Virus record (IMG/VR): IMGVR_UViG_3300042307_001176
Span: 32,001-96,000 of that record
Direction: 5' to 3' (one strand)
DNA from: a virus
DNA length: 64,000 nucleotides
The notes under the pieces were generated by a model that was given only the letters and a program-made list of their open reading frames with translations, was not told the DNA's origin and ran no database searches. Positions 3,138 to 64,000 of this stretch are shown here, in pieces (position 1 is the stretch's first letter; each line of letters starts with the position of its first letter). A program made the translations under genes and the position numbers.

Positions 3138-3175
3138 ATATTATATATTACACCTTCTTTAATATATAGTGATAT

Positions 3176-3484
3176 ATGAACAATATTATTTTAAATAGGC
3201 TAGAAATAATGTTTGAGGATCTTCCTAATAAAATGCCATGGACATCAGTTGCAGGAGAACTTGAAGCATTGGGGGGAAACGGATGGAGATTACCTACCGA
3301 ATTGGAATTTAAAGATATCTATAACTTTTCTAAATTAGGAATAGGTGGATTTAAGCCAGAAAAATATTGGTCAGCATCTTCATCTGGTAATAAAGCTTGG
3401 TATTACAATTTAGGCAAAGGATATTCACCACACATTACTAATCAATCTAATCAATTGTATGTGAGATTAGTTAGAAATATCTAG
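3176..3484 (+). CDS. DUF1566/Lcl C-terminal (CLec-fold) domain protein
   Basis: GWRLPT..E, YWS, AWY, C-terminal YVRLVR. Confidence 0.8.
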   Translation: MNNIILNRLEIMFEDLPNKMPWTSVAGELEALGGNGWRLPTELEFKDIYNFSKLGIGGFKPEKYWSASSSGNKAWYYNLGKGYSPHITNQSNQLYVRLVRNI

Positions 3485-56505: not shown

Positions 56506-58152
56506 ATGTCAAGACTAGGCGAATTTGCTGACAAAAAAACAGCAATGCAAATTTTACAAAACTCCTCTTACGGAGCACTAGGAGTAGAGAACTTCATGGG
56601 TGGAACATCTTATTCTTTATCCCCACTGAACACATTAAAGATTGTTGCTGCGTCTTCAATCTTTGGAGAACCACAGTATTATAGAGATGGACTTGGATCA
56701 CCTAAAAATCTTAGTACAATTTTAGAGTATTCAATACTTTCACCGCTGTTCAAAAAAGAATCAGGAGAAGTTATAGACAATATGACTTCATTGGACATAT
56801 TTGAAATTGCCATACAAGCAGCTTTAGACTTTGACTTTAAAGCAACATTAGATTTGACATTAGAACTTCGTAACGAGTACTACATGCGTCTAAATCCTGC
56901 TGTAATATTCATGAAAGCGAGTATGCACGAAGGACGTCAGGAGTTCAACGAGAAAAATCCAGGTTACATGAAAAAGATAGGTAAATCTATTGCTCTACGT
57001 CCAGACGATTTGACCAACCAATTCGAATACTACATGTATAAGAATTCGTCTAAAAAAGGTCTTTCATCATTAGTGAAAAGAACTTGGGCAGAAAAACTTG
57101 CAGAATTCTCTCGTTACCAATTAAACAAATACAAAGGTAAAAGTCTAATTGATCTTGTTCGTATCTCGCATGCTAAGAGTGAAGATATTAACGAGCTAAT
57201 GACAACAGGAGGATTAAAAGTATCTGACGCAGAGAAAACTTGGGAGAATCTAAAATCAGAAGGAAAAAACTGGAGAGATATCACAGACACAATCTTGATT
57301 CCCCATATGGCTCTTTTAAGAAACCTTAGAGGTATTTTTACTGAGATCGAAGATCCTTCAACTACAGCAAGAATCTTAGCTCAATTAAAAGCTGGAGTTA
57401 TTAAAGGTAAACAATTTCCTTTCAGATATTGGTCAGCTTATAAAGCAGTATCAAATTCTCAAATACATCACAAACAACTTGTATTGGATACATTAGAAGA
57501 GTGTCTAGATATTTCAGTTGAGAACATGCCTAAATTAGGAGGTAAAACTGTGTGTCTTTCTGATAACTCAGGATCTGCATGGAGTGCTTTCAATAGCGAA
57601 TATGGATCAGTTACTGTTGCCGAAATTGCTAACTTGTCATCTTTGATCACTTCACTCCAATCTGATTCAGGGGAAGTTGGAGTATTTGGAGATAATCTTT
57701 CGTTAAAAGGAGTATCTAAAAGAAATGGGCTTCTTACACAATTGGAAGAGACATCAGAAAGAGGTAGAGCTCAAGGAGGTGGTACAGAAAATGGTATTTG
57801 GGTATTCTTTGATGATGCTATCAAAAAAGGAACACAATATGACAATATCTTCATCTACTCCGACATGCAAGCAGGACATGGTAATCTTTATGGACACAGA
57901 GAAACAGTAGGGAGAACTAATTTTGTTCATTCAACGAAAGGAGGGACATACATTGACGTACTTGCAATGGCTCAAGAATATAGAAACAAAGTTAACCCTA
58001 AAGTGAATTTATTCACTGTACAAGTTGGTGGTTATAATAACAGTGTTCTACCAGAATCATTATACAGAGGAGCAATTTTAGCTGGATGGACAGGTAAAGA
58101 GCCGGTTTTTGCTAAAGCAATTATAGATGCTTGGGATTCAGAAGAAGCATAA
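56506..58152 (+). CDS. rsr: TROVE-domain Ro60/Rsr ribonucleoprotein with vWA domain
   Basis: NFMGG.SY, DLVRISH, PHMALLRNLR, QFPFRY, DNSGS (MIDAS), SDMQ, GW. Confidence 0.9.
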   Translation: MSRLGEFADKKTAMQILQNSSYGALGVENFMGGTSYSLSPLNTLKIVAASSIFGEPQYYRDGLGSPKNLSTILEYSILSPLFKKESGEVIDNMTSLDIFEIAIQAALDFDFKATLDLTLELRNEYYMRLNPAVIFMKASMHEGRQEFNEKNPGYMKKIGKSIALRPDDLTNQFEYYMYKNSSKKGLSSLVKRTWAEKLAEFSRYQLNKYKGKSLIDLVRISHAKSEDINELMTTGGLKVSDAEKTWENLKSEGKNWRDITDTILIPHMALLRNLRGIFTEIEDPSTTARILAQLKAGVIKGKQFPFRYWSAYKAVSNSQIHHKQLVLDTLEECLDISVENMPKLGGKTVCLSDNSGSAWSAFNSEYGSVTVAEIANLSSLITSLQSDSGEVGVFGDNLSLKGVSKRNGLLTQLEETSERGRAQGGGTENGIWVFFDDAIKKGTQYDNIFIYSDMQAGHGNLYGHRETVGRTNFVHSTKGGTYIDVLAMAQEYRNKVNPKVNLFTVQVGGYNNSVLPESLYRGAILAGWTGKEPVFAKAIIDAWDSEEA

Positions 58153-59339: not shown

Positions 59340-59347
59340 TATATTTG
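59340..59347 (+). promoter_or_regulatory. Bacteroidota -7 promoter element for tRNA operon 1
   Basis: TATATTTG matches TAnnTTTG. Confidence 0.6.
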
Positions 59348-59383
59348 TGAAACAAAATAACAAAGAGAACATATAATACTCAA

Positions 59384-59443
59384 ATGAACAAAACAATTAA
59401 CATATTACCTATATCATTAAGACCGTCGTCAAGACGATCCTAA
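59384..59443 (+). CDS. Putative attenuator leader peptide MNKTINILPISLRPSSRRS
   Basis: 19 codons enriched in ATA/TCA/TCG/AGA/CCG; stop overlaps the antiterminator arm. Confidence 0.7.
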   Translation: MNKTINILPISLRPSSRRS

Positions 59444-59510
59444 AGGTCCTATGTTAATAAAAAATAATCATTAACTAAACCGGGACCTTTAAAAGTCTCG
59501 GTTTTTTTTT
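59421..59510 (+). terminator. Attenuator: alternative 1:2, 2:3 (antiterminator) and 3:4 (terminator) stems
   Basis: taaaggtcct/gggaccttta versus aaaccgggac/gtctcggttt plus T9. Confidence 0.75.
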
Positions 59511-59512
59511 GT

Positions 59513-59524
59513 GTTCTTTGACAT
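59513..59524 (+). promoter_or_regulatory. boxA-like antitermination site
   Basis: GTTCTTTGACAT immediately before the first tRNA. Confidence 0.65.
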
Positions 59525-59540
59525 GTTGGATTATAAAATT

Positions 59541-59630
59541 GGAGAGTTGCCAGAGCCAGGCTTAATGGATCAGTCTTGAAAACTGACGTAGCGAAAGTTA
59601 CCGGGGGTTCGAATCCCTCACTCTCCGCCA
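59541..59630 (+). tRNA. tRNA-Ser(TGA)
   Basis: Cloverleaf, long variable arm, loop cttgaaa, encoded CCA. Confidence 0.95.
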
Positions 59631-59633
59631 ATT

Positions 59634-59707
<74 letters not shown>

Positions 59708-59874
59708 CACAAAGCCCTCTGCCTAGCGCTGGGTATGGATCGAAGATAGAATATGCCTCTACAACGTAGACAGTTAGAATATTTCGGTATTCTTTAATGA
59801 TATGCACACTTATTCTCTAAATCGTGGGTTAGCACAGTTTGTATGTTCTGGGGATATTTAAAGACATACAATTT

Positions 59875-59947
59875 CGGGATGTAGATCAGTTGGTAGATCG
59901 CCTGGTTTGGGACCAGGAGGCCGTCAGTTCGAGTCTGGCCATCCCGA
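59875..59947 (+). tRNA. tRNA-Pro(TGG)
   Basis: cctgg-tttggga-ccagg. Confidence 0.95.
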
Positions 59948-59954
59948 CATCAAT

Positions 59955-60028
59955 AGAGGCGTAGCTCAATTGGTTAGAGCACATGCCTTATACGCATGCG
60001 GTCACGAGTTCGACTCTCGTCGTCTCTA
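59955..60028 (+). tRNA. tRNA-Ile(TAT)
   Basis: catgc-cttatac-gcatg, full cloverleaf. Confidence 0.9.
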
Positions 60029-60032
60029 CTTA

Positions 60033-60106
60033 GGTCCCTTAGCTCAGTAGGTTAGAGCAACTGACTCATAATCAGTAGGTCCACGGTTCGAGCCCGTGAG
60101 GGACCA
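60033..60106 (+). tRNA. tRNA with CAT anticodon, probably Ile2 (lysidine) rather than Met
   Basis: actga-ctcataa-tcagt; 5' GGTCCCTTAGCTCAG resembles ileX-type tRNAs. Confidence 0.85.
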
Positions 60107-60189
60107 CTAAATTTTAAAGTCTTTAGGAGAACAAAAGTTCATGCTGGTTCAGATCCAACCTCTTGTATTTTTTGGATATATAATAAATC

Positions 60190-60564: not shown

Positions 60565-61416
60565 ATGGCAACAACAAGACCTTTTTCGTATAATCCAACG
60601 CAATCAACAATTGCTGGAACTACTAATTTAGGTACCATATGTATAGGAGTATCTGATTTAGACTATGCTGCTAGCCCTGGAGGATTAACGTGGTGGATGG
60701 GACCGGATGAAGATAATTCTTATGTAGTATGCAAGGATGTACCAGCTCAAAATTTCCCTACTCCGTTAGGAAATATAGGCAATGTACAATTTTGGAGATG
60801 CACTAATACAGATTTAGCATTTAGAGATATGGTATCTACAATAAGTGGTACTACACAAGCATCGGCTTCAGCAGCTAGTGATTGGTTAGCATCTAATAAC
60901 TATTGGACTAACAGAAATCCATATCTTGCAGGTCTATATAAAACAACTTACTCTGGATATTTCGCAGATTCAGTTAGTTTCTTTGCAACTGCAACTCCTC
61001 AAGCATTTGGAACAAACCCAGCTACTTCTGTACAAACTACTGCAATATCAGAAGCAGCTAGTGGTGATGGTGATTATTTTAGTTGTCAATGGTTGGGTTA
61101 TTTCAGTCCGACTACTACTCAAACTTATACATTTTACACCAACTCGGATGATGCATCTTATGTGTGGGTTGGAGCAAATGCGATATCTGGATTTACTACA
61201 GCAAACGCAACAGTCAATAATGGAGGTGCTCATGGTCCTATAGAGGCATCAGGTTCTATAGATCTAACTGCAGGAGTTTATTATCCTATAAGAATTCAAT
61301 TCGGTGAAGCCGGCGGAGGTGATGTACTTACTTTCAATTATTCAACACCAACGATAGCAAAAACAACTAATGTAACAGGATTAGTTTTCTATAATACATC
61401 AACTAACGGATTCTAA
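60565..61416 (+). CDS. Shared N-terminal module + PA14/GLEYA domain protein
   Basis: WLGYF, YTF...SDDAS, NNGGAHG, YYPIRIQFGE.GG. Confidence 0.8.
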   Translation: MATTRPFSYNPTQSTIAGTTNLGTICIGVSDLDYAASPGGLTWWMGPDEDNSYVVCKDVPAQNFPTPLGNIGNVQFWRCTNTDLAFRDMVSTISGTTQASASAASDWLASNNYWTNRNPYLAGLYKTTYSGYFADSVSFFATATPQAFGTNPATSVQTTAISEAASGDGDYFSCQWLGYFSPTTTQTYTFYTNSDDASYVWVGANAISGFTTANATVNNGGAHGPIEASGSIDLTAGVYYPIRIQFGEAGGGDVLTFNYSTPTIAKTTNVTGLVFYNTSTNGF

Positions 61417-61421
61417 AACAT

Positions 61422-62198
61422 ATGGCAACAACAAGAGCATTTTCATATAATCCAACACAATCAACAATTGCGGGAACTACGAATGTGGGTACTCTATGTA
61501 TAGGTGTATCTCCTTTAGCATATAGTACTAACCCTGGTGGATTAACCTGGTGGATGGGACCAGACGAAGATAATTCTTACGTGATAGCTAAGGATGTATC
61601 AGCTGGAAATTTTCCCACTCCTGTAGGGAACGTAGGTAATGTACAATTTTGGAGATGCACTAATACGGATTTAGCATTTAAAGATTTAGTATCTATAATA
61701 AGTGGTACTGCACAAGCATCGGCTTCAGCAGCTAAATCATGGCTAACAACAAATAATTATTGGACTAATTATACCAGTGGTGTAACTTTCTCTCGCCCTT
61801 TCGTTAATGGTATTGCACCAGGAGCTACCACAGAAACTGCTTGGAATACATTCAGAGCAGCATTAACGGGATCTTATACACAATTTGTTATATCAAATTC
61901 ATTAGGATTTAGTCTAACCGTAAGCCATGCTACTTCGGTCCAAACTTTGGCAGATGCTTTAAAAAATGCAACAAGCAATACCTCAGTAACTATAAACAGC
62001 GTAGTTTGGAGAGTGGGAACAGCTTGTGGAACTCCTTCTATTGGTGGAGTTGCTGTTGAATTTTCTAATGTAGGAAGCTGTACTGGATCAAGTACTATAG
62101 CATTTAGACCTATGATTAATAACTTAAACTGGGGAGGTATGGGTACAGGGTCTACTGTAAGCCAGGCTTCTCAAACAATGACACTAACATTTAGCTAA
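61422..62198 (+). CDS. Shared N-terminal module + different C-terminal domain
   Basis: First ~117 aa nearly identical to the 60565 protein. Confidence 0.8.
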   Translation: MATTRAFSYNPTQSTIAGTTNVGTLCIGVSPLAYSTNPGGLTWWMGPDEDNSYVIAKDVSAGNFPTPVGNVGNVQFWRCTNTDLAFKDLVSIISGTAQASASAAKSWLTTNNYWTNYTSGVTFSRPFVNGIAPGATTETAWNTFRAALTGSYTQFVISNSLGFSLTVSHATSVQTLADALKNATSNTSVTINSVVWRVGTACGTPSIGGVAVEFSNVGSCTGSSTIAFRPMINNLNWGGMGTGSTVSQASQTMTLTFS

Positions 62199-62361: not shown

Positions 62362-62517
62362 AGATATATAAGTAATGAAAACATTTAAAGATTTTATTTA
62401 CGAAAAAATTAATGAAGACACATTATCGTATAGGGGATTAGTTTTCTATAATACATCAACTAACGGATTTTAAAACATATGGCAACAACAAGAGAATTTG
62501 CATATAATTTACAATAA
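62362..62517 (+). pseudogene. Chimeric duplication scar (mini-ORFs 62375-62473 and 62479-62517)
   Basis: 62362-62440 equals 62630-62708; 62435-62508 nearly equals 61378-61451. Confidence 0.85.
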
Positions 62518-62642: not shown

Positions 62643-63227
62643 ATGAAAACATTTAAAGATTTTATTTACGAAAAAATTAATGAAGACACATTATCGTATA
62701 GGGGATTAAAATTTAATTTTAATTCAACTATCGATGGGTATGTTAAAGTAAAAGAAGATGATCCAACTATATCATTTGATAGTGAAACCTCGTTTGATAA
62801 ACTTATAATAACCGATCCTCGTGAATTCTTTAACTTTAGATATGATAATGAAAAGGATAATAAGAACTTATCTTCTATTGATTCAGAAAATGTTCTTAGA
62901 ATTAGAATTGGATCTAAAGATTTTAAGGGAAGATCCGGCGGGGTTACTCATGTATCTGTAAGAGTCCCTGAAAATTTTGACTATAATAAATTTCAATTAG
63001 AGTTACCTAATATAAAGATAGCGCTTACAGATAGAACTGAAGTAGACAGAGTTATTAAAGAAGTTGAGGCTCTTGTAACTAAATGTGCAGGGGAAGAACC
63101 TAATGCGTATTCAGATAATAAACCAGATTACAGACAGGACATCGTAAATTTTATTAAATCTATAGAAGAAAAGCTAGGTAAAGAAGATACCAAAAGAATA
63201 TTTATTGATATTATTAATAAATTGTAA
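62643..63227 (+). CDS. Hypothetical protein with T4 capsid-targeting-like start MKTFKDFIYE
   Basis: 194 aa ORF after GATATATA. Confidence 0.75.
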   Translation: MKTFKDFIYEKINEDTLSYRGLKFNFNSTIDGYVKVKEDDPTISFDSETSFDKLIITDPREFFNFRYDNEKDNKNLSSIDSENVLRIRIGSKDFKGRSGGVTHVSVRVPENFDYNKFQLELPNIKIALTDRTEVDRVIKEVEALVTKCAGEEPNAYSDNKPDYRQDIVNFIKSIEEKLGKEDTKRIFIDIINKL

Positions 63228-63544: not shown

Positions 63545-63593
63545 TAAAAATAAAAAAATATCAGAAATCGTTTTTTAATGAGAAACTTTTCTG

Positions 63594-63601
63594 TACATTT
63601 G
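63594..63601 (+). promoter_or_regulatory. Bacteroidota -7 promoter element for tRNA operon 2
   Basis: TACATTTG. Confidence 0.6.
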
Positions 63602-63633
63602 GAGTATATAATAAAAAAGGAACAAAACTTTCA

Positions 63634-63723
63634 ATGAAACACTTTTTAAATATCGCAACAGATTTTCAACTTCGTAAAGAGGATGACCTTCTAGAGGATA
63701 GATTTAAGTGTCAGAGGAAATAA
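63634..63723 (+). CDS. Putative attenuator leader peptide MKHFLNIATDFQLRKEDDLLEDRFKCQRK
   Basis: GAG GAT GAC..GAG GAT cluster; 3' end carries the antiterminator arm. Confidence 0.65.
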   Translation: MKHFLNIATDFQLRKEDDLLEDRFKCQRK

Positions 63724-63773
63724 ATTTATATAATGATATAATTTAAACCTCTGATAACCTCAGAGGTTTTTTT
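63684..63773 (+). terminator. Attenuator: antiterminator versus terminator
   Basis: tgtcagagg/cctctgata versus aaacctctga/tcagaggttt plus T7. Confidence 0.75.
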
Positions 63774-63781
63774 GTTTTATA

Positions 63782-63794
63782 CGCTCTTTGAAAT
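63782..63794 (+). promoter_or_regulatory. boxA-like antitermination site
   Basis: CGCTCTTTGAAAT just before the tRNA. Confidence 0.65.
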
Positions 63795-63797
63795 TAC

Positions 63798-63869
63798 GCT
63801 GCCATCGTCTAACGGTTAGGACCTATGGTTTTCATCCATAAAATCGGAGTTCGATTCTCCGTGGCAGTA
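63798..63869 (+). tRNA. tRNA-Glu(TTC)
   Basis: tatgg-ttttcat-ccata, full cloverleaf. Confidence 0.92.
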
Positions 63870-63880
63870 CAAAAAATTAA

Positions 63881-63955
63881 GGTCCCGTAGTTAAACGGCT
63901 ATAATGCTGCCCTGTCACGGCAGAGTTCGGAGTTCGATTCTCCGCGGGACCGCCA
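63881..63955 (+). tRNA. tRNA-Asp(GTC)
   Basis: ctgcc-ctgtcac-ggcag, encoded CCA. Confidence 0.95.
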
Positions 63956-63963
63956 AATTATAT

Positions 63964-64000
63964 CGCAGAGTAGAGCAGTTGGTAGCTCGTTGGGCTCATA
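63964..64000 (+). tRNA. Initiator tRNA-fMet(CAT), truncated by window end
   Basis: C1 start, tagagcagttggtagctcg, GGG before ctcata. Confidence 0.8.

Follow-up and report, generated by a model that had tools for sequence, protein, structure and literature searches.

The stretch of DNA analysed here, referred to as the window throughout, comprises 64,000 nucleotides (nt), namely bases 32001-96000 of a 154,411-base IMG/VR virus record with an estimated completeness of 66%, and ends within a block of transfer RNA (tRNA) genes preceded by a compact unit of approximately 170 nt which holds a promoter-like box, a short open reading frame (ORF), an intrinsic terminator and a boxA-like motif. The source is an uncultured lake phage with a G+C content of approximately 31%, and near-identical DNA has been found in many lake-water metagenomes from 2018 to 2025. 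All 24 tRNA genes of the record are located on the plus strand, in a first block at 59541-60107 (Ser-UGA, Arg-UCU, Pro-UGG, Ile-UAU, Met), a second block that extends from 63798 to 122 bases beyond the window end (Glu-UUC, Asp-GUC, Met-CAU, Leu-UAG) and a third block beyond the window (Phe, Lys, Trp, Arg-ACG, Cys, then ten more tRNAs in line). An earlier note on this DNA had interpreted the unit in front of the second block as an attenuator that provides tRNAs on demand. The coordinates it had assigned to the elements of the unit were confirmed by direct reading of the sequence, except for a proposed 1:2 stem taken up below.

All parts of the unit are on the plus strand. The putative promoter region (63571-63601) consists of a T-run, followed by GAAACTTTT and by the box TACATTTG at 63594-63601, in which T29, A30 and T33-G36 are invariant among 11 relatives. 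TAnnTTTG is the -7 consensus of Bacteroidota promoters, and the sequence suggests a promoter role for this box. Between the -7 box and the start codon of the ORF follows the element TATATAAT (63605-63612), conserved as GTATATAA in alignment A1 of the Glu/Asp leader family (11 members) and with the similar elements ATATATAAT and TATATTTATAA upstream of other leaders, which may be a second promoter element of phage type. Elements of the ATATATAAT or TATATTTATAA kind are also observed 5-25 nt before the start codons of leaders of relatives and of some protein genes, in the window at 63605-63612, 59372-59380 and 60176-60186, and may constitute a phage-specific promoter giving rise to very short 5' leaders.

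The leader ORF at 63634-63723 has 29 codons (MKHFLNIATDFQLRKEDDLLEDRFKCQRK), with the start codon ATG at 63634 and the stop codon TAA at 63721-63723, and contains, as the earlier note had read, the codons GAG GAT GAC CTT CTA GAG GAT (EDDLLED) at 63679-63699. The sequence tgtcagagg (63709-63717), a copy of the 3' arm of the terminator situated 4-12 nt before the stop codon, is the 5' strand of the proposed antiterminator and is called region 2 in the following. An AT-rich inner stem-loop at 63721-63745, seen in the computed fold, extends the antiterminator. The intrinsic terminator (63745-63773), which was also listed by a terminator scan, has a stem of 10 bp including four G-C pairs, formed by aaacctctga (63745-63754) and tcagaggttt (63760-63769) around the loop TAACC, and a run of seven T at 63767-63773. 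The boxA-like motif GCTCTTTGAAATTAC (63783-63797) directly precedes tRNA-Glu(UUC) at 63798-63870, which is followed by tRNA-Asp(GUC) at 63881-63955 and by the 5' part of a tRNA gene with the anticodon CAU at 63964-64000 that continues beyond the window end. A C1-U72 mismatch and an anticodon stem that ends in three G-C pairs (GGG/CCC) give the latter tRNA the look of an initiator. The fourth tRNA gene of the operon, tRNA-Leu(UAG), is located outside the window.

The seven codons of EDDLLED are all read by the Glu(UUC), Asp(GUC) and Leu(UAG) tRNAs of the operon, and with the codon usage of this genome a run of at least seven cognate codons among 28 is expected with P = 2e-4. The run occupies codons -11 to -5 before region 2, the positions where cognate codons peak across leader families. 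In alignment A1 the ATG is invariant and the reading frame is kept through three ORF-internal indels of 12, 3 and 3 nt. Likewise, LED is invariant, and the core (D/E/N)(L/R)L(V)ED is retained with synonymous CTT/CTA and GAC/GAT changes, whereby the Leu codons of the core are CTN in 11/11 members, even though this genome uses TTA/TTG for Leu more often. The invariant ATG, the in-frame indels and a codon signal that is confined to one frame are signs that the leader is translated. Most leaders of the related units described below start with MK(N/T/Q)xx(K/N/T)H(N/M)(I/V), and a word AAYAT(A/C) is conserved 15-20 nt past the ATG in many families, as AAATATC invariantly in the Glu/Asp family. The word might mark a site of polymerase pausing, serve as a pairing partner or reflect a feature of the nascent peptide.

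Region 2 is complementary to cctctgata (63748-63756) with one G-U pair, and the two strands and the hairpin are present as required for the competition between antiterminator and terminator that the earlier note had proposed. The duplex of region 2 with the 5' arm of the terminator has an energy of -11.1 kcal/mol at this locus (z = -3.3 versus shuffles). Over 62 related units, the mean is -11.8 kcal/mol versus -6.7 kcal/mol for shuffled upstream sequence. The longest helix between an ORF end and its own terminator arm averages 6.84 bp versus 4.94 bp with the arms of other families (z 7.7). The pairing is conserved, with 89.9% of cells paired in alignment A1 versus 32-47% when the partner is slid. 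Three antiterminator pairs have changed on both sides in this alignment, as have two pairs of the inner stem at 63721-63745 (A-U to U-A and U-A to C-G), and the divergent members L031 and L032 possess a different terminator stem with region 2 changed to match. For the window sequence, the RNA preceding synthesis of the 3' arm folds into the helix of region 2 with the 5' arm (2:3 helix), and the antiterminator (63709-63756) has a fold energy of -14.8 kcal/mol versus -12.6 kcal/mol for the terminator hairpin alone. With region 2 ending 4 nt before the stop codon and the regulatory codons located 10-31 nt before region 2, the geometry fits masking of region 2 by a ribosome at the stop codon and its liberation by a ribosome at the regulatory codons. 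No match to an Rfam family, be it T-box, a known leader or another, was found over 63560-63800, whether the gathering score or a cutoff relaxed to E up to 1 was applied; a Thr_leader match on the sister unit of the first tRNA block has an E of 0.51, which is at chance level.

The layout is not restricted to this locus. The three tRNA operons of the record are preceded by one common order of parts: a TAnnTTTG box is followed by a short ORF, whose stop lies near a word copied from the terminator 3' arm, and then by a hairpin with a T-run, a (G/C)(T/C)TCTTTGA(C/A)A motif and the first tRNA. The unit of the Ser/Arg/Pro/Ile/Met operon (59340-59529) has the box TATATTTG at 59340-59347, a leader at 59384-59443 (MNKTINILPISLRPSSRRS), a terminator at 59477-59504 and a boxA-like motif at 59513-59529; 10/18 of its leader codons are cognate to its own tRNAs (p = 4e-4), compared to 0/18 for the tRNAs of the Glu/Asp operon. 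In the leader of the Phe/Lys block, 28/34 codons match its 15 downstream tRNAs. All three leader-bearing operons of the genome agree with the attenuator model. The prediction that tRNAs matching further leader codons would be found past 64000 was partly borne out: tRNA-Leu(UAG), which serves CTN, is part of the same operon, whereas Phe, Lys, Arg(ACG) and Cys belong to the next operon behind its own attenuator, with Gln and His located further on. After tRNA-Met of the first operon, at 60108-60180, lies a sequence with a T-arm-like end (ggttcagatccaacc) which is probably a decayed tRNA gene; an intact tRNA-Leu(UAA) is found at the equivalent place in the relatives L028 and L029, and the leader of the first block retains two TTA codons.

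Two such units are also present in a cultured phage, Cellulophaga phage phi4:1 (NC_021788, L339). Its first leader at 2214-2282, unannotated in the record, reads mkiQRLHLQELEQPiisggtgv (capitals denoting cognate codons), with 11 consecutive cognate codons, and precedes the tRNAs Pro, Glu, Gln, His, Leu, Leu and Arg(ACG). The second leader, inside the annotated gp075 (3138-3257), has 22/26 cognate codons and lies before Ala, Lys, Ile, Gly, Met, Asp, Thr, Val, Arg(UCU), Met and Tyr. The Arg codons CGT and AGA are sorted to the blocks holding Arg(ACG) and Arg(UCU), respectively, and each leader ORF ends near a copy of its own terminator 3' arm, with the T-runs following at about 2340 and about 3315. 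The gene gp075 (TTG start, 39 amino acids) is probably this second leader annotated with a wrong start, the proper one being GTG at 3174 or nearby.

Relatives were collected in two ways, via the protein gene that follows the Glu/Asp operon and via the conserved motif, followed by a mechanical scan, which together provided 62 distinct units of the layout in 47 loci of related phage contigs. The boxA-like motif is present in 49/62 units, and in 45/62 an antiterminator strand is located between -32 and +6 nt relative to the stop codon, with a median leader length of 33 codons and a median gap of 24 nt from stop codon to terminator. The tRNA sets vary widely among units and the leaders vary with them; for example, the leader MSNIINIQPQPQHHPQGC stands ahead of Pro, His, Gln and Gln, and a leader with ...LLWDDDAEEV... 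ahead of Asp, Asp, Glu, Val, Leu, Leu, Ala and Trp. That a short ORF, a terminator and a brief complementary sequence came together by chance in an AT-rich intergenic region is hardly credible in view of this recurrence. Region 2 is just 7-9 bp, short ORFs are common, and promoter-like and terminator-like scans of the region are overall not above shuffled expectation. The layout is, however, present at three places in this genome, and a further 62 distinct units with unrelated sequences show it elsewhere, and the permutation, frame and cross-family controls described next are all strongly non-random, so that chance is judged to be refuted by the comparative tests.

When tRNA sets were shuffled among 25 leader families, with operons cut at gaps of 250 nt or 1000 nt, the fraction of codons cognate to the own set was 0.34 and 0.49, respectively, compared to permuted values of 0.23 and 0.33 (z 6.1 and 7.6), and the observed fraction was reached by 0/100,000 permutations (p < 1e-5); as families were split by a crude 4-mer rule and at least two are homologous, the p-values are somewhat inflated, a point to be counted with the objections assembled below. 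The match is positioned. In 19 families the leader stop has an antiterminator strand close by, and among these the cognate fraction counted upstream from region 2 is 0.63-0.79 for codons -10 to -4 versus approximately 0.30 for other sets (z ~7 for a test over this range), and drops to background level at codons -3 to +5. This is the pattern predicted from a ribosome footprint, since a ribosome stalled closer than approximately 12 nt would cover region 2. The match is also restricted to the reading frame, with a cognate fraction of 0.69 in frame versus 0.26 and 0.23 in the shifted frames (p ~1e-4), and the signal therefore concerns codons and not RNA composition. Where operons possess a single isoacceptor family of Leu, Arg, Ser or Ile, 24/25 codons from the split codon families (Leu TTR/CTN, Arg AGR/CGN, Ser TCN/AGY, Ile ATA/ATY) fit the isoacceptor of the operon versus 14.1 expected from the usage of this genome, a match that cannot be explained by a function of the peptide itself. 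With respect to Glu and Asp in particular, the codon range -10 to -4 holds 2.5 Glu plus Asp codons in families with a Glu or Asp tRNA versus 0.22 in families without (p = 3e-4), and Asp is found there in 10/10 families with tRNA-Asp versus 1/9 families without.

A stalled ribosome cannot distinguish a missing from an uncharged tRNA, classical attenuators sense amino acids, and the operon probably includes a protein gene. The unit might thus report amino acid availability or general translation status instead of tRNA supply, as a timer of growth state or infection stage responding to starvation or late slowdown, with the codon match as a by-product of phage codon usage. Codon sets specific to each operon would, however, be expected neither from codon usage in general nor from a single global signal. 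Leaders match their own operon within one and the same genome, as seen above for the leaders of the first and the third block, and inside one leader family the codons track the gain and loss of tRNA genes (L041 versus L045). It is consequently rather improbable that the unit serves as such a status timer.

The boxA-like motif has the consensus TTTTTTGTTCTTTGACATATTGG across units, lies at median distances of 8 nt from the preceding terminator stem and 15 nt from the first tRNA that follows, and on the plus strand of the 154-kb record it is found at the three units only. The sister units carry a 17-mer, GTTCTTTGACATnnTGG, that many Bacteroidota have in identical form between their 16S and 23S genes. 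The exact 17-mer was encountered in at least 120 bacterial DNA stretches, most of them in records named as Bacteroidota (Pedobacter, Mucilaginibacter, Chitinophaga, Niabella and others) and many of them on contigs of the size of a ribosomal RNA (rRNA) operon. Four loci were annotated with Rfam, and in 4/4 the 17-mer is located in the 16S-23S spacer between the spacer tRNAs and the 23S gene, at a distance of 58-212 nt from the latter, and a GATCTTTGAAATTTTGG or GTTCTTTGAAGTATTG form is located 88-147 nt before the 16S gene in 3/4 loci (two Niabella, one Crocinitomicaceae). The GCTCTTTGAAATTAC motif of the Glu/Asp locus resembles this 16S-leader variant. The boxA elements of rRNA operons occupy the 16S-leader and 16S-23S spacer positions. 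By position and known consensus the bacterial elements would be functional boxA sites, and boxA is the best reading of the phage motif, with Nus factors as its putative ligands; the statement of the earlier note that a boxA precedes tRNA-Glu, tRNA-Asp and the initiator-like tRNA gains support from the match to the rRNA operon elements. Both the boxA-like motif and the TAnnTTTG box point to a Bacteroidota host.

Several observations weigh against an attenuator at the Glu/Asp locus. Over the whole ORF, 9/28 codons are cognate versus an expected fraction of 0.19 (p = 0.07, not significant), and the same ORF scores equally 9/28 against the tRNA set of the next operon, while decoding of CTT by tRNA-Leu(UAG) presupposes four-way wobble; the case at this locus rests on the seven-codon run, its position and the comparative data. 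Covariation of the terminator was not found within the Glu/Asp family, where the stem is invariant in nine sequences and the two divergent ones are misregistered by one column by MAFFT. A 1:2 protector helix is weak and unconserved. The weaker 1:2 stem of the earlier note (63684-63690 with 63706-63713) is absent from the minimum-energy fold, which pairs 63706-63711 with 63641-63646, a pairing that is itself imperfect in some relatives of alignment A1. Equilibrium folds with a ribosome mask retain the terminator at 6/7 stall positions, and as the terminator is favoured at equilibrium, the switch must be kinetic, as in classical attenuators.

The preference for the terminator in the equilibrium fold and the weak codon enrichment over the whole ORF are at the same time what would be expected if the hairpin merely insulated, that is, if it ended an upstream unit, with the ORF irrelevant or untranslated and the tRNAs under a promoter of their own overlapping the conserved TTCTTTGACA, which contains a perfect TTGACA. 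A terminator directly ahead of a tRNA block is, moreover, ordinary. The TTGACA within the motif was nevertheless rejected as the -35 element of a tRNA promoter, as the first tRNA begins 5-20 nt after the motif, which leaves no space for a -10 element, and as the same motif is located in rRNA operon spacers, where a promoter is not expected. An insulating terminator also leaves unexplained the codon match specific for frame, position and isoacceptor, the frame-preserving indels and the fact that the ORF ends with a copy of the terminator 3' arm which co-varies with the terminator across families, and is considered unlikely.

The anatomy of the unit, its conservation, the correspondence of codons and tRNAs in frame, position and isoacceptor, and the finding that region 2 and the terminator co-vary are read directly from sequence and comparison. 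Cumulatively, the frame, position, isoacceptor and cross-family tests support the interpretation of the earlier note, and it is considered likely that a ribosome-mediated (leader-peptide) transcription attenuator controls the phage tRNA operon for Glu, Asp, initiator-like Met and Leu(UAG).

In the proposed mechanism, transcription would start at the conserved promoter near 63594-63612 and the leader would be translated while RNA polymerase proceeds, with termination predicted to respond to ribosome stalling. Upon fast decoding of the Glu, Asp and CUN-Leu codons, the ribosome would arrive at the stop codon at 63721 and cover region 2 (63709-63717), whereupon the hairpin at 63745-63769 with its T-run would form and transcription would stop ahead of the tRNA genes. 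When charged tRNA is scarce, on the other hand, the ribosome would stall within EDDLLED (63679-63699) and leave region 2 free to pair with the emerging 5' arm of the terminator, so that the polymerase would read through. The boxA-like RNA could then recruit host antitermination factors of the rRNA type, which would shield the long untranslated tRNA transcript from Rho. Finally, the tRNA products would restore decoding and close the switch in a negative feedback loop, a 'tRNA on demand'.

Public RNA data were surveyed in Logan contigs only, in which transcript ends are unreadable, and comprised three metatranscriptome runs and a fourth with a guessed RNA label. One 336-nt contig of the fourth run spans 63598-63885 and thus leader, terminator, boxA-like motif and tRNA-Glu; with the run type being uncertain, it would represent a read-through molecule if RNA, but may be DNA. 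Otherwise, the contigs of the four runs hold small parts only, mostly tRNA-like pieces of other organisms.

With respect to the genes in the neighbourhood, a 189 amino acid protein with a HAD_SAK_2 domain (Pfam, E = 5e-23) is encoded at genome C1:96124-96693 (L015:1661-2230), 124 bases past the window end. HAD_SAK_2 is the HAD domain of the 'Swiss Army Knife' RNA-repair proteins. The gene starts 2 nt after tRNA-Leu(UAG), a position kept in close relatives, and because of this spacing it is probably co-transcribed with the attenuator-controlled tRNAs and probably included in the attenuated operon. Upstream, at 56506-58152, a 548 amino acid protein with a TROVE (Ro60-like) domain is encoded, and a match to the Y RNA-like Rfam family YrlA at 59895-60007 (E 0.011, below the gathering score) overlaps tRNA-Pro and tRNA-Ile. 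Together, the TROVE gene, the YrlA-like match and HAD_SAK_2 suggest that functions in RNA repair or quality control are grouped around the tRNA operons. In a possible, tentative extension, the attenuators would act as sensors for a phage module of tRNA homeostasis and counter-defence, which would detect depletion of particular host tRNAs by anticodon nucleases or by phage-induced decay of the translation apparatus and switch on the matching tRNAs, with RNA repair by the HAD_SAK_2 phosphatase, Ro60/TROVE nearby and a boxA borrowed from host rRNA operons.

Further sequences around the tRNA operons were observed. A 32 amino acid ORF at 62375-62473 joins the N-terminus of the gene at 62643-63227 (MKTFKDFIYEKINEDTLSYRGL) to the C-terminus of the gene at 60565-61416 (VFYNTSTNGF) and looks like a duplication or recombination scar. 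The genes at 60565-61416 and 61422-62198 have their first approximately 120 residues in common, and one of them has PA14/GLEYA sugar-binding domains. Beyond the window, the last tRNA block is interspersed with a remnant resembling a tRNA and with two spacers that contain long inverted repeats (genome C1:98001-98078, 98239-98326 and 98487-98561), which could represent stable small RNAs or structures for processing.

The reasons for which phages possess tRNA genes, and the use they make of them, have long been debated, with compensation of codon usage and escape from tRNA-cleaving defences as the current answers. If the attenuator model is true, phages gauge the tRNA supply of the host codon by codon and replenish it on demand, tRNA levels are under direct product feedback via the ribosome, and the sorting of phage tRNA genes into blocks mirrors regulatory units. 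The leaders would then be a readable record of the tRNAs that each phage treats as limiting. Occurrence in a cultured pair, phi4:1 on Cellulophaga baltica, makes the idea directly testable, and the compact modular parts could serve as codon- or tRNA-specific sensors.

Leader-peptide attenuation of tRNA genes, in phage or elsewhere, was not found described in the full-text literature, a search by which subscription journals were mostly not covered. The closest known systems are the enterobacterial amino acid attenuators (trpL, hisL, leuL, pheL; thrL, ilvL/ivbL), which equally have a short translated leader with regulatory codons and a terminator whose 5' arm has an alternative upstream partner, masked by the terminating ribosome and free when the ribosome stalls, and among which multivalent leaders exist (thr for Thr and Ile; ilv for Ile, Val and Leu). 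Unlike those, the phage units would regulate tRNA genes and not biosynthetic enzymes, so that the sensed molecule is the product, and their leaders mix up to approximately 15 amino acids and discriminate isoacceptor codon families. They are, furthermore, phage-borne in a Bacteroidota context, have a boxA-like element after the terminator, lack a clear 1:2 protector helix and match no Rfam leader family. In the pheST attenuator of Escherichia coli, a decoding component is controlled through a leader peptide by the supply of charged cognate tRNA; the target there is a synthetase, the amino acid a single one and the genome cellular. T-box riboswitches also operate a terminator/antiterminator switch in response to the charging of a specific tRNA, but bind the tRNA directly via a specifier codon and the T-box sequence without a ribosome; the phage unit shows no T-box match, and its frame-specific codon signal indicates the ribosome as the sensor. 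As for the boxA/Nus antitermination of rRNA operons, the phage motif matches or closely resembles the Bacteroidota 16S-leader and 16S-23S spacer element and likewise heads a long untranslated RNA operon, whereas it is located in a tRNA operon directly behind the attenuator, with binding of NusB/NusE being putative. The proposed mechanism is hence that of the classical attenuators, and what is new is the tRNA gene target, through which the product itself feeds back, together with leaders that are highly multivalent and distinguish isoacceptors, the occurrence in phages and the coupling to boxA.

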